Shown piece after piece: positions 1-5,602 of a stretch of 5,871 nt of DNA. A model generated the notes under the pieces. The model made no database searches. It was not told where the DNA came from and worked only from the letters and a program-made list of their open reading frames with translations. A program made the position numbers and the translations under genes. How positions within the stretch are numbered: the first letter of the stretch is position 1; each line of letters opens with the position of its first letter. Location: IMG/VR virus record IMGVR_UViG_2534682252_000030; one strand, 5' to 3'. This stretch comes from a virus. Its lineage: Duplodnaviria > Heunggongvirae > Uroviricota > Caudoviricetes.

Positions 1-461
1 GATCATCGCTTCAGTTCCTGTATCAGCAGAGTCAGGAGCTTTTCGCTGACATTGCCATTGAAGCGGAGCGTCCCGTGCCGGAACGTTACCTCACAGCTGA
101 TACTGAGGGTTTCCGGGTCCTCTGCGAGCGATTCTGGCTGTTCGGCAGCTGCGTCGAGAGTCACAGGAAGTAGCTGGGGGCTCTCTGAAGAAGGTAATAG
201 CAGCTTTCCCTCGCGCCATTGTTGTCGCCATTTGAACAACAGATTGGCGTTAATGCCATTTTCAAGAGCAAGTTTTGAGATGGATATCCCGGGTTCACAG
301 GAGGCAGCAACGAGCTGCTGTTTAAATTCGGGAGGATAATTAGGGCAGCCTTTTCGCCTGCCGGGAGTCACATTTTTCTGCATATCTGATACTTTGGTTC
401 CCACTACTTATTTGGTGGACACCACTTTGTCTAATTCGTCAGATTCTGACCAGACGGTTCA
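1..461 (-). mobile_element. Inner end of an IS66-family-like insertion sequence; element continues past window start, exact terminus not resolvable (between 384 and 461)
   Basis: tnpA-like ORF at 3-383 replaces the expected large-terminase gene directly after a truncated Nu1-like ORF. The minus-strand sequence at the junction begins TGAACCG, and its TGA is the stop codon of the truncated ORF. No canonical IS66 GTAAGCG-type end was seen and the other end is outside the window. Confidence 0.4.
3..383 (-). CDS. IS66-family TnpA-like (orf1) accessory transposase protein; ATG at 383 preferred over the GTG at 404 used by the ORF track
   Basis: Translation MQKNVTPGRRKGCPNYPPEFKQQLVAASCEPGISISKLALENGINANLLFKWRQQW has the HTH pattern of IS orfA proteins. 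The C-terminus CEVTFRHGTLRFNGNVSEKLLTLLIQELKR resembles the conserved C-terminal block of IS66 TnpA as I recall it. No obvious Shine-Dalgarno sequence. Confidence 0.55.
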   Translation of the reverse strand: MQKNVTPGRRKGCPNYPPEFKQQLVAASCEPGISISKLALENGINANLLFKWRQQWREGKLLLPSSESPQLLPVTLDAAAEQPESLAEDPETLSISCEVTFRHGTLRFNGNVSEKLLTLLIQELKR

Positions 462-734
462 GGCTGTACGCTTTTTTAACTGCTGTGTAACAGCCTGTTC
501 TGCTGTCAGTTCCCATCTGGCAATAAGCAATTTCTCCTCATAGTCGTCTTCGCTATCGCCATCAGGCACATCGTTTTTACTTCTCCTCAGATACGATATG
601 TAAAAATCGCGCCAGGCATCCAGATCCAGTTGCCCTCGCTTATTCGATATCGGGGCACCCGGCAATTTCTGCAATCTGCGAAGCTGGCGATCGGTCAGAC
701 TTAAATGCCTGGCAACTTCAGTCTGCGTAGCCAC
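459..734 (-). CDS. Terminase small subunit, Nu1-like, N-terminal ~91 codons only (truncated; likely pseudogene)
   Basis: Starts about 195 bp from cosN, as lambda nu1 does. Has an N-terminal HTH-like segment (VARHLSLTDRQLRRLQ) and a C-terminal stretch ELTAEQAVTQQLKK resembling lambda Nu1 RLTRAQADAQELKN near residue 90-100. GTG start preceded by GAGGTGAGGA. Lambda Nu1 is 181 aa; this ORF stops at the IS junction. Confidence 0.55.
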   Translation of the reverse strand: MATQTEVARHLSLTDRQLRRLQKLPGAPISNKRGQLDLDAWRDFYISYLRRSKNDVPDGDSEDDYEEKLLIARWELTAEQAVTQQLKKRTA

Positions 735-774: not shown

Positions 775-880
775 AACCGGTCATGTCCGGTTTACATGTC
801 TGTTTTTTGTTCATGTCCGGTTCACAGAAGACCTGTTTTTATATTTTTCATATAGTTAACTTGAAGAGAAACCGGACATG
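775..880. repeat. cosB-like terminase-binding repeat set: 11-mer AACCGGACATG or its complement at 782-792, 812-822 and inverted at 870-880, plus a 1-mismatch copy at 775-785; AT-rich spacer 823-868 is a possible IHF/bending site
   Basis: Three exact copies of CATGTCCGGTT / AACCGGACATG lie between cosN and the Nu1-like start, two in one orientation and one inverted, with an AT-rich segment between. This mirrors the R3-I1-R2-R1 layout of lambda cosB but with a different sequence. Confidence 0.5.
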
Positions 881-917
881 GATCCCGGAAAATTTTCATA
901 AATAGCGAAAACCCGCG

Positions 918-929
918 AGGTCGCCGCCC
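918..929 (-). other. cosN: 12-nt cohesive-end sequence GGGCGGCGACCT (minus strand), lambda-type
   Basis: Minus strand 929 to 885 reads GGGCGGCGACCTCGCGGGTTTTCGCTATTTATGAAAATTTTCCGG, matching the lambda left end as I remember it. The other side (930-975) matches the lambda right end ...TGATAATAATTATCATTT.GCGGGTCCTTTCCGGCGATCCGACAGGTTACG. Confidence 0.85.
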
Positions 930-980
930 CGTAACCTGTCGGATCGCCGGAAAGGACCCGCAAAATGATAATAATTATCA
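930..980 (-). other. cosQ-side segment (lambda right-end-like sequence adjoining cosN)
   Basis: Reverse complement of 930-975 matches the lambda right-terminal sequence from memory. Confidence 0.6.
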
Positions 981-1128
981 TCTACATGTCACAACGTGCA
1001 TCTACGCCATCAAACCACGTCAAATAATTAATTATGACGCAGGTATCGTATTAATTGATCTGCATCAACTTAACGTAAAAACAACTTCAGACAATACAAA
1101 TCAGCGACACTGAATACGGGGCAACCTC

Positions 1129-1353
1129 ATGTCAACGAAGAACAGAACCCGCAGAACAACAACCCGCAACATCCGCTTTCCTAACCAAATGATTGAACAA
1201 ATTAACATCGCTCTTGATCAGAAAGGTTCAGGTAATTTTTCAGCGTGGGTTATTGAAGCCTGCAGAAGAAGATTAATTAATGAAAAACATGCTCAATTTG
1301 TACCCAACAAAGACAAACACGACCAGAGCACCTGTTCAGACAGGTTTACTTAA
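1129..1353 (+). CDS. Small ribbon-helix-helix-like DNA-binding protein, YlcI/YnfO (DUF3950)-like prophage protein, 74 aa
   Basis: Complete ORF with ATG. RNIRFPNQMIEQINIALDQ...NFSAWVIEACRRRL fits a beta-strand/helix/helix Arc-MetJ pattern. The N-terminus MSTKNRTRRTTTRNIRFPNQMIEQINIAL matches my recollection of the K-12 DLP12/Qin YlcI/YnfO proteins. Followed by an intrinsic terminator. Confidence 0.55.
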   Translation: MSTKNRTRRTTTRNIRFPNQMIEQINIALDQKGSGNFSAWVIEACRRRLINEKHAQFVPNKDKHDQSTCSDRFT

Positions 1354-1372
1354 ACGACTTATATATGACACA

Positions 1373-1397
1373 AAAAGCGACCACTAAAGTCGCTTTT
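1373..1397. terminator. Bidirectional rho-independent terminator between convergent genes
   Basis: Stem AAAAGCGAC (1373-1381), loop CACTAAA, stem GTCGCTTTT (1389-1397). A-run on one side and T-run on the other. Lies between the stop at 1353 (+) and the stop at 1435 (-). Confidence 0.7.
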
Positions 1398-1434
1398 TCT
1401 TATGGTAACAGGCAATAACGCTCACAGATATTTT

Positions 1435-1749
1435 TTAGCATTTTTTTGTACCGCGCGTTTCCGGACGTATTCTGTTCTCCTGTCCCTTTATATCGTCGGA
1501 ATACCCGCCGCTCTTCAAATCCCATTCCCAACTCAGAATGTAGTCTGTTGACCGCTTGTTTATTTCTGTCAGGTTCATCGGTGAAACCGGAGTCCGGCGC
1601 GCCTTACGCAAACACTCTGCTCGTTTCTGTGCCGCCACTTTTCTTTTCTGGTCATCACTTAGCTGTACCATCACTTTTGCCCATCGTTCAGCTGCTCTCC
1701 GGTACAGTCCTTTTTTCTCCAGACATTCTGCCAGGTGATCATGTAGCAT
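1435..1749 (-). CDS. PerC-family-like transcriptional activator (Pch-like), 104 aa; assignment by motif memory
   Basis: ATG at 1749 with GGAGG 7 nt upstream. N-terminal motif AECLEKKGLYRRAAERW resembles the conserved PerC-family block. Lysine/arginine-rich. Sits in the moron position between Rz and cos, behind a 460-bp AT-rich region. Confidence 0.45.
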   Translation of the reverse strand: MLHDHLAECLEKKGLYRRAAERWAKVMVQLSDDQKRKVAAQKRAECLRKARRTPVSPMNLTEINKRSTDYILSWEWDLKSGGYSDDIKGQENRIRPETRGTKKC

Positions 1750-2213
1750 AAGTGACCTCCGATTATCTACAGACTGCTATCCTGAATTTACCTTCCTTTA
1801 ATGAAATAACAATAAAAAATAAATCACAGAAAAACAACAAAACAACACACAAAAAAACCAAATAATAAACCCAAATAATCACCTTATTTTATTATTTTTT
1901 GAGAGAGCTATTACTGAACAAAAAACGCTGACTATATACTCAAAACCAAACAACTATTCTGCCAATCAGGTATAATGGCAACACAAGGAATTACCGTGTT
2001 TTTGCCTTCTCTGCCCATACAATACGGACATATACTTCATACTCTATTGTAATATTTCCATCCATGCGAACAACTTCATTTATCTGTAAATAATATTCAA
2101 AATATTTATCACAGAAATCGTTTTTGGCCATGAACTGAGCACACTATAAAGTCCGGAACTGACTCTTTGTTAAATTACCTTAACGTTACCAGTAACACCT
2201 TCATAACAAAACA

Positions 2214-2681
2214 TCACGGTATACACTGGGTACGGATATATTCCTGTGCTCCTTCCAGTTGCTTCTGCATTGCCATCAGCCGTTCTCTGAGGATGAAATA
2301 ATCCCGTTCAGCGGCTTCTGCCAGTCGGGGACCGGTTGCATTATCCACGCCGGAGGTGATGGGGGCTTTACGCAAGGAGCCTGGACAGTTGGCGTTGATG
2401 CGCAGGCGCTTACGACCAGCGGCAACATCAGCACGCAGAGTTTCATTTTCAGCTCTCGCATCGGCTAATTCCCTCGAGTATCTGGCATCAAGTGCAGCGA
2501 CATCACGCTGGCGTACCTGCATATCAGTAATTGTCACGTTCGCCAGCTTCAGCTCACTGGCTTTTTTATCGCGTTGCGCTTTGTAGGTAATGGCGTTATC
2601 GCGGTAATGATTCAGCCCCAGACTAAGCACACCACAGGCTACCAGCAGGACAATAATCACCACACACAGAACACGGTTCAT
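2214..2681 (-). CDS. Rz: Rz i-spanin (inner-membrane spanin subunit), 155 aa
   Basis: MNRVL...[45 protein letters not shown]...[20 protein letters not shown] aligns along its length with lambda Rz. N-terminal TM segment present. Confidence 0.9.
2276..2461 (-). CDS. Rz1: Rz1 o-spanin lipoprotein, embedded in the +1 frame of Rz
   Basis: [20 protein letters not shown]...[32 protein letters not shown] matches lambda Rz1, including the lipobox (VVSAC) and proline-rich core. True start may be the internal Met at about 2446. Confidence 0.85.
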
Positions 2682-2688
2682 ATCCCCC

Positions 2689-2820
2689 TCACCCCACCAG
2701 CCATGACAAAGTTAAGACGCGCCAGGCAGTGGAAAAGCAAATAGCAACCAGCATTAGTGAAAATGAAATGCCGACGATTACACAGAGGATCTTCGCCAGC
2801 GTTATGAGCTTGTCTGACAT
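2689..2820 (-). CDS. Small hydrophobic membrane protein, 43 aa, unknown function
   Basis: ATG at 2820 preceded by AGAGGA. Translation [43 protein letters not shown] is almost entirely a TM helix. Its TGA stop overlaps the Shine-Dalgarno of Rz. It is in the same frame as the upstream 60-aa ORF, separated only by TGA plus 12 nt. Confidence 0.45.
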
Positions 2821-2832
2821 GCTTAATCCTCT

Positions 2833-3015
2833 TCACGATTTCAACGCAATGACCAGTTTTGCCAGCCCATACAGCATCGGAGACACAGCAATACCGACCG
2901 CCACCCACTTAATAGCAAAAGCCAGCGCTCTGCTGACGTCATCAGTTACAGGCGCTTTCAGTTCAAGGCCGTTTTTCATAGTCAATCTCAACAGAATTCG
3001 TTTATACTTTCCCAT
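2833..3015 (-). CDS. Small tail-anchored membrane protein, 60 aa, unknown function
   Basis: ATG at 3015 with AGGGAG 5 nt upstream. MGKYKRILLRLTMKNGLELKAPVTDDVSRALAFAIKWVAVGIAVSPMLYGLAKLVIALKS has a basic N-terminus and a C-terminal TM helix. The 86-aa form in the ORF track starts at a GTG inside a terminator hairpin and is less likely. Confidence 0.45.
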   Translation of the reverse strand: MGKYKRILLRLTMKNGLELKAPVTDDVSRALAFAIKWVAVGIAVSPMLYGLAKLVIALKS

Positions 3016-3049
3016 GTTCTCCCTTGCCTTACTCAAGGTCAGAAACACA

Positions 3050-3080
3050 AAACCCCGTTTGCGGCCAACAAACGGGGTTT
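3050..3080. terminator. Intrinsic terminator hairpin between the endolysin gene and the small membrane-protein ORFs (bidirectional in form)
   Basis: Perfect 12-bp stem AAACCCCGTTTG (3050-3061) / CAAACGGGGTTT (3069-3080) with loop CGGCCAA. T-rich tract follows on both strands. Confidence 0.7.
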
Positions 3081-3170
3081 TACTTTTATTCACTTAGTTT
3101 TTGCCAGTTCGCAGGATTTCGTGTTATCCGCCAGTGTGAGCAAACCGCATTTTTCAGCAAAATATTCTGC

Positions 3171-3704
3171 TTATCTGTCAATTCCCCAGCACGCCAGCGC
3201 GCTCTCCTGGTCACGCCGTGAAACCTGACCGTAGCAGTTGTTTGAGCGAATACGGCAGTCTCTGCCACCGTCCTTAATCCACCAGCGAATCGCCTCACAC
3301 GCTCCCCTGCGATCACCTGCATTAATTCGTCTGTAAAACGTCGACGGGAAACACTTACCGGGACCAATGTTGTACGGACAGAATGACGCGATCCCCGCTT
3401 TCTGGGGTTCGGTCAGCGGTACTTTAATATTGCGCTCCACCCACTCCAGCGCCTTATCACGTTCAATGGCGTTAACCTGGTCGCATTTTTCCTTCGACAA
3501 CTTCATGCCCGGAACGACAGGTTTACCATCCACCAGGATGGCACCGCGGCAGATGGTCCAGATACCCGCACCATCACGGTATGCCGTGGTGTGGTTACCT
3601 TCTTTTTCGTCAAGAAACTGGTCGAGGATTTCAGGCGCAGACGCCCCTGCACCAATCAGCGCCAGAACGGCAGCCGACAGGCCGTATCTGATTTTTGCGT
3701 TCAT
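3171..3704 (-). CDS. R: Phage lysozyme (GH24, T4-lysozyme-like) with N-terminal signal-anchor-release-type segment; RrrQ-like, 177 aa
   Basis: Intact ORF. N-terminal weakly hydrophobic Gly/Ala-rich segment YGLSAAVLALIGAGASA. Catalytic E-x8-D-x5-T motif in EGNHTTAYRDGAGIWT. Close to my recollection of the K-12 Qin prophage lysozyme. Confidence 0.85.
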   Translation of the reverse strand: MNAKIRYGLSAAVLALIGAGASAPEILDQFLDEKEGNHTTAYRDGAGIWTICRGAILVDGKPVVPGMKLSKEKCDQVNAIERDKALEWVERNIKVPLTEPQKAGIASFCPYNIGPGKCFPSTFYRRINAGDRRGACEAIRWWIKDGGRDCRIRSNNCYGQVSRRDQESALACWGIDR

Positions 3705-3754
3705 GGATATTTATCAGGGTTTATCGATTTCAAATCCCTGGATATGTTAAGTCT

Positions 3755-4098
3755 TCAGGCCAGCGGTGGAGTCTTCAGAGAACCCGTAATTATTCCCGGT
3801 AGTTTTCCTCTGTAGGTTATCAACACATCCTGCGCCTCTAAAATTACGGGACGCTTTTCCGGTAACGGACCATCCCCTTCACATAACCCGGCAGCAACAT
3901 CCATGAAAAACTGCTTCGCCTGCTTTTTCGCCTCAGCTTCGTAAAACTCCAGCGTGGCACCTTCAGTACGGTCAAGACTAATCGCCACATCTGGCAACAA
4001 CAGTGACGGATACCCACCAATTTCCGGTGCCACAGTAACAGTAATCTTATCCGGGTAATTATTTATCCCTTTAACACCCAGTTCGTATTTTTCTTCAT
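3755..4098 (-). pseudogene. YdfR-like (DUF1327-like) small protein gene between holin and endolysin, disrupted by an apparent 1-nt deletion in an A5 run
   Basis: ATG at 4098 with GGGGGGAG 7 nt upstream opens MKKNTNWVLKG then stops. One extra A in the A-run (4088-4092) would join it to the long open frame MKKKYELGVKGINNYPDKITVTVAPEIGGYPSLLLPD...TPPLA ending at 3755. The track ORF 3755-4033 is the GTG-initiated tail of that frame. Family name is from memory of Qin gene order (essQ-ydfR-rrrQ). Confidence 0.45.
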
Positions 4099-4102
4099 CG
4101 CT

Positions 4103-4306
4103 TTACTCCCCCCGCGCCGCCTTACGACGGTCCTCTCTGATTTTGAAATACAGGTTAGTCAGATACGTCAGCAGGCCAAACAGCAGACTCCCAGCACACC
4201 GATTGCCACCCACTGGACGGAGAGACTTTGTCCAGCAGCTGCAGTAACCAGTATCCCGTCCCACCGCTGACGTGGTGTATGACACACCTGTTGTGATTTT
4301 TTCCAT
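4103..4306 (-). pseudogene. S: Class II pinholin (S21 / EssD-like) gene carrying three apparent single-nucleotide deletions
   Basis: The annotated frame gives [16 protein letters not shown]...[28 protein letters not shown], with a holin-like N- and C-terminus but a scrambled middle. The holin-like middle appears in the other two frames: [14 protein letters not shown], then QWVAIGVLG. Frame switches fall near 4260-4267, 4215-4218 and 4190-4192, each in a G or C run. Confidence 0.7.
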
Positions 4307-4351
4307 CTGATGTATGTCTCCGTCACCGCCGACAGAAAATGAAAGTAAAGG

Positions 4352-4625: not shown

Positions 4626-4952
4626 ATGACTAAAAATACTCGTTTTTCCCCCGAAGTCCGTCAGCGGGCGATTCGTATGGTTCTGGAAAGTCAGGATGAA
4701 TATGACTCACAGTGGGCGGCAATTTGTTCCATTGCCCCAAAGATTGGCTGTACGCCGGAGACTCTGCGTGTCTGGGTTCGCCAGCATGAGCGGGATACCG
4801 GGGGCGGTGATGGTGGGCTCACCAGCGCTGAACGTCAGCGTCTGAAAGAGCTGGAACGTGAAAATCGTGAACTGCGCCGCAGTAACGATATCCTTCGCCA
4901 GGCTTCCGCTTATTTTGCGAAGGCGGAGTTCGACCGCCTCTGGAAAAAATGA
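4626..4952 (+). CDS. IS3-family transposase OrfA (HTH / leucine-zipper DNA-binding component), 108 aa
   Basis: [22 protein letters not shown]...[34 protein letters not shown] is a typical IS629-group OrfA. SD-like GAGG upstream. Confidence 0.85.
4943..4949 (+). other. Candidate -1 programmed frameshift site (A-run) at the orfA/orfB overlap
   Basis: A6 run 4944-4949 directly before the orfA stop TGA (4950-4952), with orfB in the -1 frame starting ATGATG at 4949. IS3-family transposases are normally made as an OrfAB fusion by -1 frameshifting on an A-rich heptamer. Confidence 0.5.
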
Positions 4953-5602
4953 TGCCACTGCTGGATAAGCTGCGTGAGCAGTACGGGGTCGGACCGGTAT
5001 GCAGCGAACTGCATATTGCCCCGTCAACGTATTACCATTGTCAGCAACAGCGACATCATCCGGATAAACGCAGTGCCCGTGCGCAGCACGACGACTGGCT
5101 GAAGAGAGAGATACAGCGCGTATACGATGAAAATCATCAGGTGTACGGTGTGCGTAAAGTCTGGCGTCAGTTGTTACGGGAAGGAATCAGGGTGGCCAGA
5201 TGTACAGTGGCACGTCTCATGGCGGTTATGGGACTTGCCGGTGTTCTCCGGGGTAAATGGGCCCGTCGTCCGTCTGGCACCATCCATCACAGCGATAAAG
5301 GCTCTCAGTATGTGTCACTGGCCTATACGGAGCGACTAAAAGAAGCCGGATTACTGGCATCAACAGGGAGTACAGGCGACTCGTATGACAACGCGATGGC
5401 TGAGAGCATCAATGGTCTTTACAAAGCGGAGGTAATACACCGTAAGAGCTGGAAAAACCGTGCAGAAGTGGAACTGGCCACACTAACGTGGGTGGACTGG
5501 TATAACAATCGACGATTGCTGGGAAGGCTGGGCCATACTCCTCCGGCAGAAGCAGAAAAAGCTTATTATGCTTCCATCGGAAACGATGATCTGGCAGCCT
5601 GA
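4949..5602 (+). CDS. IS3-family transposase OrfB (DDE catalytic component) with an in-frame internal deletion of about 75-80 codons; probably catalytically dead
   Basis: 217 aa versus roughly 290 aa for IS3-family OrfB. Only about 11 residues separate GVLRGK from HHSDKGSQY (second catalytic Asp), where full-length proteins carry about 80 residues including the first Asp (D.TY motif). Downstream [15 protein letters not shown] block is intact. Junction near 5255-5260. Confidence 0.75.

Follow-up and report, generated by a model that had tools for sequence, protein, structure and literature searches.

Positions 775–959 (minus strand) of the 5,871-nucleotide stretch analysed here (the window) form a cosQ-cosN-cosB site, which is that of lambda up to bp 45 (positions in bp follow the lambda numbering) and then passes into another recognition module, most likely with a packaging specificity of its own, and we hold this reading with good confidence. 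The cosB is real and of a known kind, and no new mechanism is involved.

A mosaic cos site in an E. coli O157:H7 prophage

The window is DNA of an E. coli O157:H7 lambdoid prophage, and the locus is of the Sp4/CP-933M type. O157 chromosomes match the whole window at 99.8%, and over a 691-bp stretch around cos, EDL933 and numerous further O157 genomes agree with it at 100%. The phage orientation is the minus strand of the window, on which holin, endolysin, Rz/Rz1 and a PerC-family gene are followed by cos and a Nu1-like gene; in complete genomes, the locus runs on into terS, TerL, portal, protease and decoration genes. The features on either side of cosB are the following:

953–959, minus strand: cosQ heptamer GGGTCCT, read from the sequence, identical to lambda cosQ and marked in Figure S8 of PMC2669165
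918–929, minus strand: cosN, the 12-nt cohesive-end sequence GGGCGGCGACCT, equal to lambda bp 1–12 and identical to lambda and phage 21
885–917, minus strand: spacer from cosN to R3, equal to lambda bp 13–45 and 100% identical to lambda
472–734, minus strand: terS′ (nu1′), with a GTG start, codons 1–87 of the 169-aa small terminase, truncated by an insertion sequence
1–471, minus strand: end of ISEc8 (IS66 family), with tnpA at 404–3, which interrupts terS

The site has the hallmarks of a lambda-like cos, since the 12-nt cohesive-end sequence is flanked by CG on both sides and cosQ lies about 30 bp upstream of cosN, at bp −30 to −24 (30–24 bp upstream of the cohesive-end sequence), where it overlaps the lambda R4-like TTTCCGGCG. 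The spacer from cosN to R3 includes an I2-type IHF-like sequence, TATGAAAATTTTCCG (the I2/IHF label is taken from Figure S8 of PMC2669165). Over lambda bp 1–45 the identity is 100%, with no single change, and the lambda homology then ends at window position 885; past bp 45, ungapped identity to lambda drops to 16% (bp 46–70) and 25–32% (bp 71–195). A sharp mosaic junction thus lies exactly at the cosN/cosB border (bp 45/46). A preliminary description of this DNA had stated that cosN and about 45 bp on each side match lambda. This held on the cosB side but was an underestimate on the other, as window positions 885–1276 are 94% identical to lambda over 392 bp, about 350 bp of which lie on the non-cosB side.

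In this prophage, terS is cut after codon 87 by the ISEc8 insertion, and homology to intact terS stops at window position 472; this break is absent from the preliminary description. It is known from Asadulghani et al. 2009 (PMC2669165), who reported nu1::ISEc8 in Sp4 of the Sakai strain, found cos and Nu1 to be identical in Sp4 and Sp14 and aligned Nu1 to lambda. In the same study, Sp4 was scored as defective in packaging, head and other functions, induced Sp4 DNA was nevertheless present in DNase-resistant particles, and the identity of cos and Nu1 led to the proposal that the Sp14 terminase "most likely" packages Sp4 DNA. Because terS is broken by ISEc8, the Sp4 site can act only in trans. 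In Figure S8 of that study, Sp4, Sp14 and lambda are compared over cosQ, cosN and the I2-type IHF sequence; the alignment ends at ...GGGATCCATGT, and so the R repeats were left unanalysed, as were I1 and the question of specificity. The locus, nu1::ISEc8 and cos are therefore already published, while the R sites of this common module are uncharacterised.

Three repeats in a layout resembling a complex cosB

Beyond the junction, the 11-mer AACCGGACATG is found in exactly three copies in the window, at 782–792 and 812–822 on the minus strand and at 870–880 on the plus strand. In dinucleotide-preserving shuffles, the mean was 0.00 copies, with three copies in 0 of 200 shuffles and even one copy in none. 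The exact search and the shuffles bear out the earlier claim of three copies, two direct and one inverted, around an AT-rich spacer; the segment between the single copy and the pair (bp 61–108) is 73% A+T. Read on the opposite strand, these copies give the R elements of the following cosB:

870–880, minus strand: R3′ CATGTCCGGTT, exact copy, bp 50–60, the proposed critical TerS site
846–858, plus strand: I1′, candidate IHF site TTTCATATAGTTA, bp 72–84 on the bottom strand, in the A+T-rich spacer
812–822, plus strand: R2′ CATGTCCGGTT, exact copy, inverted relative to R3′, bp 108–118
795–805, plus strand: degenerate copy CATGTCTGTTT with two mismatches, between R2′ and R1′
775–792, plus strand: R1′ CATGTCCGGTT at 782–792, bp 138–148, in the orientation of R2′, with an overlapping opposite copy

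R3′ occupies the slot of R3 in lambda and phage 21 (50–65) and in N15 (48–60), and R2′ is inverted like R2 of lambda and 21 at about 107–124. The phage 21 record is annotated with R3 at 50–65, I1 at 74–86, R2 at 107–122 (inverted) and R1 at 150–166, and the lambda sites are likewise placed. The positions of R3′, I1′ and the inverted R2′ are hence those of a complex cosB, whereas R1′ is inverted and lies about 12 bp nearer cosN than in lambda and 21. The alignment to both phages that had been proposed as a check thus came out as expected, with its sharp junction at bp 45 and its repeats at bp 50–60, 108–118 and 138–148 set against the sites of 21.

In the R3 orientation, the R1′ region has only a copy with one mismatch, CATGACCGGTT (785–775, forward copy at bp 145–155), which overlaps R1′ in the opposite orientation and forms with it the near-palindrome AAACCGGACATGACCGGTTT. 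The preliminary description does not mention that the third repeat is opposite in orientation to lambda R1. The degenerate copy at 795–805 is probably not a site, because this segment is variable among relatives. As for I1′, it departs from the IHF consensus WATCAANNNNTTR by two mismatches, the same count and the same departures as lambda I1 AAACATTAAGTTA (bp 74–86), and its strand and position agree with I1 of lambda and 21. Over the whole window the IHF pattern is not enriched (49 found against 58 expected), and we therefore take TTTCATATAGTTA to be the likely I1′ on account of its position.

A small terminase with a divergent DNA-binding domain

The ORF at 734–459 (minus strand) encodes 87 small-terminase residues followed by four from ISEc8, and the terS′ fragment covers the winged helix-turn-helix DNA-binding domain (DBD) and the start of the linker helix. 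Phages PhiR12_1 to PhiR12_5 and the sibling O157 prophage carry the intact 169-aa TerS. The protein belongs to PHROG 57/1790 (terminase small subunit). Its C-terminal two thirds (residues ~64–166) are 40–46% identical to the TerS of phage 21 and lambda (46% for lambda), whereas residues 1 to ~63 gave no BLASTP alignment to the TerS of either phage, in line with the earlier remark that the N-terminus of the small terminase is unlike that of lambda. Likewise, Pfam Phage_Nu1 (PF07471) matches the intact 169-aa homologue with 67.9 bits (cut-off 30) at residues 49–150 only, and the 91-aa window fragment, when scanned against Pfam, had no significant match (best Sigma70_r3, E = 0.05).

A profile search with the DBD against PDB sequences returned insignificant matches only (eS10, NF-kB), so that sequence alone cannot link the domain to Nu1. 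In a multiple alignment, however, helix 1 and the turn, the recognition helix, the wing and helix 3 all have their counterparts in lambda and 21; the recognition helix reads TDRQLRRLQKL here, SIRTIQNWQEQ in lambda and DPRTIERWQSQ in 21, and the wing is about five residues shorter than that of lambda. The structural model of the N-terminus (pLDDT 75, moderate confidence) has helices at residues 4–10 and 15–22, a short hairpin and a helix at 38–54. The predicted fold best matches the lambda TerS DBD and its mimic RppC, with Foldseek E-values all >0.1, and is that of the MerR-like winged helix-turn-helix N-terminal DBD which characterises Phage_Nu1. In summary, alignment and model point to a winged helix-turn-helix of the Nu1 type whose reading head is different.

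Comparison with lambda, phage 21, N15 and satellite systems

With lambda, the site shares an identical cosQ, cosN and bp 1–45, R3 at about bp 50–60, an IHF-type site at about 72–86 on the same strand, an inverted R2 about 54 bp from R3 and the predicted fold of the DBD. It differs from lambda in the R consensus, CATGTCCGGTTY here and CGTTTCCKTTCT in lambda, with a similar reading in the 3′ half, as well as in the inverted R1′ nearer cosN and in the recognition helix and wing. Neither mark of lambda specificity, the R sequence CGTTTCC(G/T)TTCT or residues Q20/E24 of the Nu1 helix, is found, the helix here having R19/K23.

Phage 21, the classical alternative specificity, likewise combines an exchanged module with the common cosQ/cosN. 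Its R elements share TCATGTC..GG with those of the window, there is a G at the bp-56 equivalent, and its recognition helix also has an Arg at the position equivalent to lambda N21. Compared with 21 R (TCATGTCGG / TTTCATGTCGGNCCTT), the window repeat reads alike with one extra base in the core and another 3′ half. This likeness to the phage 21 R sequence is a further point that the preliminary description does not contain. In contrast to 21, the R3 core is shifted by 2–3 bp towards cosN, R1 is in the opposite orientation and the TerS DBD is unrelated at the BLASTP level. The 21-type R sequence, (T)C(A/G)TGTCGG(N)(A/C)CTT, and the gp1 helix RTIERWQS are both absent from the locus, and the likeness is partial (TCATGTC and GG).

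N15 has a simple cosB, made up of a single R3 and a remote rR2 at bp 249–260, and Monarch a complex one with the same recognition helix as N15 (PMC4669245). N15 R3, GAGGTTGTTGTTT, and the N15 helix are unrelated to those of the present clade, and accordingly the window has neither an R3 of the GAGGTTGTTGTTT type nor the N15 gp1 helix by which N15/Monarch specificity would be recognised. A tblastn search with the DBD at E <= 1e-3 recovered neither N15 nor Gifsy-1, and the possibility that one of these phages shares this DBD was rejected. The cos of phage-inducible satellites of the PICI type (EcCICFT073) has a single R3 equivalent, lacks terS and uses an Rpp-TerS heterodimer (PMC6739421, PMC9026076). 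In contrast, we deal here with a full lambdoid prophage with its own TerS, a TerL-binding C-terminus and three R copies; a PICI-type cos, which would go with an rpp gene downstream of the R3 equivalent and with a lack of head genes, was rejected on gene content.

Conservation of the repeats in E. coli

At 82 further E. coli loci, which give 41 distinct upstream sequences, these repeats again accompany this type of terS, and they recur in phages PhiR12_1 to PhiR12_5, for which the records list E. coli K-12 MG1655 or E. coli C as the host. The 11-mer is thus also present elsewhere beside this terminase type, in agreement with the original reading. In all, 1168 of 5426 complete E. coli genomes (~21%) carry the module. 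The E. coli fragments P0025, P0026, P0034 and P0035, mostly truncated or mis-assembled, were unusable for comparison.

Of the 33 repeat columns, 4 vary among the 41 variants. In the remainder of cosB, variation affects 57 of 117 columns (Fisher p = 1e-4 against the repeats), and in the segments that separate the repeats it affects 24 of 66 (p = 0.017). The segment bp 49–65, which includes R3′, is invariant in 41/41 variants, the R2′ 11-mer is kept in 37/41 while both of its flanks change freely, and the R1′ element is largely conserved. As the E. coli loci are closely related and the test amounts to few independent events, this conservation is supportive, though not decisive, evidence for cognate sites.

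A TCCGGTT core beside the same domain in other genera

Klebsiella prophages whose TerS is 67% identical keep the lambda cosN and have R3, CATTTCCGGTTT, at bp 51–62, followed by two inverted copies of AACCGGAA, with R1 inverted as here. The IHF consensus is matched perfectly in the Klebsiella relative (bp 73–85, bottom strand) and with one mismatch in a third lineage (L120). The spacing from R3 to R2 is exactly 54 bp in the window, in the Klebsiella prophage and in L120. Across E. coli, Klebsiella and metagenomic lineages that have diverged, the spacers differ but the repeats are kept.

The DBD is also encoded at 29 distant loci of gamma-, alpha- and beta-proteobacteria, among them Aeromonas, Pseudomonas, Enterobacter, Escherichia, Microbulbifer, Azospirillum and Roseomonas. 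In 23 of these loci, TCCGGTT occurs 13–89 bp upstream of terS (background 0.25 per kb), and in 16 it lies 84–86 bp from a cosQ-like GGGTCC, the distance in the window being 83 bp. This core stands at the R3 position beside the DBD type in Klebsiella, Aeromonas, Pseudomonas and Azospirillum, and in phage phiARM81ld, the record of which begins at the cohesive end, it occupies bp 56–62. Twelve distant loci have an inverted AACCGGAA 194–204 bp downstream of R3, in the poorly conserved acidic linker of terS. From these sequences, the distant members appear to have a simple cosB that mirrors R3 and rR2 of N15, as seen in Aeromonas phiARM81ld, Pseudomonas, Enterobacter and Escherichia 705R4, where a single R3 directly upstream of terS is accompanied by an inverted copy about 195–204 bp downstream; in E. 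coli and Klebsiella, the cosB of the members is of the complex form. The dichotomy of complex and simple cosB described for Monarch and N15 is therefore also met within this clade.

An Arg at helix position 20 occurs only where a G stands 5′ of TCCGGTT (window/PhiR12 and L120), while D/N/E/T/S at this position pairs with a T 5′ of TCCGGTT in the 24 other loci. The same holds for R21 with G56 in phage 21 and for N21 with T56 in lambda. This is suggestive of a single helix residue (Arg versus Asn/Asp, lambda position 21) that reads G versus T at the bp-56 equivalent, the correlation between Arg and G resting on perhaps two independent changes.

Alternative explanations for the repeats

Since the repeats resemble those of phage 21 and 21-type terminases are common in the same genomes, it could be argued that they are slightly diverged 21-type R elements, used by the 21-type terminases of other O157 prophages, with no new specificity. 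The comparison of 21 R2 and R1 (TTTCATGTCGGACCTT, TTTCATGTCGGGCCTTG) with the window repeats (TCATGTCCGGTTY), which have in common TCATGTC, then GG, and the G equivalent to bp 56, speaks for this, as does the R3-I1-R2 architecture common to both. However, the core differs by a 1-bp insertion (TCGG in 21, TCCGG here) and the 3′ half is GGTT here and GGNCCTT in 21, and the positions equivalent to bp 59, which is critical in the genetics of 21 and lambda (PMC4669245), are not comparable. The TerS DBD (residues 1–63) likewise has no BLASTP similarity to 21 gp1, with TDRQLRRLQKL against DPRTIERWQSQ in the recognition helix, and its clade in other genera adjoins TCCGGTT (23/29 loci) and never TGTCGG. 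We hence consider use by 21-type terminases improbable. The repeats might also be an inert relic, kept only by recent common descent in a prophage with a broken terS and other defects. The truncation at codon 87 and the defects scored in Sp4 (PMC2669165) fit such a relic, and the O157 copies are nearly identical, which makes selection unreadable from them alone. Against it stand the Sp4 DNA in DNase-resistant particles, with Sp14 as the proposed terminase donor (PMC2669165), the intact module in the PhiR12 phages and in about 21% of E. coli genomes, and the conservation of the repeats, with changing spacers, across diverged E. coli, Klebsiella and metagenomic lineages, and a relic therefore seems to us a poor explanation.

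Finally, the repeats lie in the leader of the late operon and could be transcriptional elements, either a hairpin terminator/attenuator or an operator before terS. The R1′ palindrome AAACCGGACATGACCGGTTT, followed by TGTTGTG, does give a terminator-like hairpin score on the coding (minus) strand, and a second, weak hairpin spans R3′. However, the hairpin is not kept in Klebsiella, whereas the AACCGGA copies are, and in simple-cosB relatives it is the coding sequence of terS that contains the second copy. Moreover, the copies keep a fixed distance of 83–86 bp from cosQ/cosN across genera, which fits the anchoring of terminase and has no rationale for a terminator, and lambda cosB occupies the same transcribed leader. 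A transcriptional role is accordingly very improbable.

A model for recognition of the Sp4-type cos

We favour the reading in which the sequence from cosQ through cosN out to bp 45, where the R3 slot follows, is that of lambda, while cosB and the first third of terS, from bp 46 onward, would be a different recognition module; the start of terS is at bp 196, compared with 191 in lambda. The architecture, its conservation and its co-occurrence with the DBD clade are seen in the sequences compared. The module would consist of three R elements CATGTCCGGTT(Y), with R3′ at 50–60 and R2′ and R1′ inverted at 108–118 and 138–148, together with I1′. By analogy with lambda (PMC9026076), IHF would bend the I1′ spacer and so bring R3′ opposite R2′, and a dimer of TerS winged helix-turn-helix domains, with the recognition helix TDRQLRRLQKL, would dock on R3′/R2′. 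The lambda-like C-terminal part of TerS would then recruit TerL (the gpA homologue) and hold it in register, and TerL would nick cosN 12 nt apart. R1′ may be accessory and add affinity. At the Sp4 site, this role could be served in trans by the identical TerS of the sibling prophage Sp14, by which Sp4 DNA is probably packaged.

Because the R sequence and the recognition helix differ from those of lambda, 21 and N15, the only documented lambda-like specificities (PMC4669245), the module most likely has a packaging specificity of its own. The proposal in the preliminary description of a packaging-specificity swap, as between lambda and 21, is thus supported by the sequence comparisons, and the module probably represents a fourth packaging specificity class. 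The terminase of N15 accepts lambda DNA for packaging although the R sites of the two phages are unlike (PMC4669245), and for this reason some cross-recognition may occur here as well. The wider proposal of a fourth orthogonal lambda-like specificity, for a TCCGGTT clade with complex and simple cosB and an Arg/Asn-G/T rule, appears to us to be somewhat better than an even chance. A literature search of incomplete coverage found no paper on this R set and none on the PhiR12 phage records.

Implications for prophage mobilisation

Which prophages, satellites and cosmids are co-mobilised depends on the DNA that a terminase accepts. About one in five complete E. coli genomes carries the module, and O157:H7 has it in two prophages. 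The module would account for the packaging of Sp4, which lacks a functional terS. If the proposal is true, specificity would define which O157:H7 prophages complement each other for packaging (Sp14 to Sp4), and the Arg versus Asn/Asp rule for the helix would be a simple, testable rule of recognition. The series formed by lambda, 21 and this clade, with its complex and simple cosB, would offer natural variants for the way in which Nu1-type winged helices read their sites, and the module may provide an orthogonal cos/terminase pair for packaging tools.

cosB variants in relatives and an R4-like sequence at cosQ

In the relatives carrying a single R3 (L005 at bp ~251, L006, L007, L008-L013, L016 and L017), an inverted AACCGGAA lies inside the small terminase gene terS, 194-204 bp downstream of R3, where it falls in the variable acidic linker (codons E/K-P-E) and appears to be the analogue of the rR2 accessory site of phage N15. 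The Klebsiella prophages (L117-L119) match the IHF consensus perfectly at bp 73-85 from the cohesive end (AATCAATTGGTTA), in the interval separating R3 from R2, and all three of their R copies read (A/C)TTTCCGGTT, with a T where E. coli has G. Residue 20 of TerS also differs, being D20 in these Klebsiella prophages and R20 in E. coli.

The window has a sequence resembling lambda R4 (CCTTTCCGGTG in lambda), CCTTTCCGGCG, and within it is TCCGG, the core of the R element in this clade. In L120, from a third lineage, an exact TCCGGTT overlaps cosQ. The TCCGG-containing sequence at cosQ is a possible R4 equivalent.

Features of the window

1-471, minus strand: ISEc8 end (IS66 family, tnpA; ORF 404..3), inserted after terS codon 87
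940-952, minus strand: lambda R4-like CCTTTCCGGCG, overlapping cosQ
1129-1353, plus strand: YlcI/YnfO-family ORF, lambda-like to about 1276, directly beside cos
1435-1749, minus strand: PerC-family regulator gene, directly beside cos
4626-5602: IS629/IS1203 copy (IS3 family), ~240 bp short of full-length copies

Insertion sequences and a possible rearrangement

PerC homologues, which can activate LEE, have been reported on E. coli PICIs as well (PMC6092414). Between the PerC gene and Rz lies an unusual A/C-rich low-complexity tract (…aaaaataaatcacagaaaaacaacaaaacaacacacaaaaaaaccaaataataaaccc…, ~1790-1900). The orfB of the IS629/IS1203 copy encodes 217 aa. Complete genomes matched the window as two pieces, with a span of 6112 bp versus 5871 bp, and no collinear one-piece match was found among the genomes of the collection.

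We compared window positions 1130-4310 with the EDL933 locus L003 (NZ_CP008957.1, 1262061-1286751, RefSeq assembly), where the cos-nu1'::ISEc8 junction is also found. Since the lysis cassette (holin, endolysin, Rz and PerC) precedes this junction in EDL933, inverted relative to the window, and a YlcI/YnfO fragment there is abutted by IS629, the comparison suggests either an IS-associated inversion or an exchange between sibling prophages.

Terminase genes in sibling prophages

Some O157 strains have a frameshift annotated in the large terminase gene that adjoins a terS of this type (L004, 1853-3782; L116, 4892-6807), and in EDL933 the large terminase gene is intact downstream of the IS-disrupted terS; hence, sibling prophages may have complementary defects. 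The terS' fragment left by ISEc8 is essentially the DNA-binding domain alone plus the linker. Speculatively, this fragment, if expressed, might be a competitor for cosB or a pairing partner for the intact TerS of the sibling prophage Sp14.
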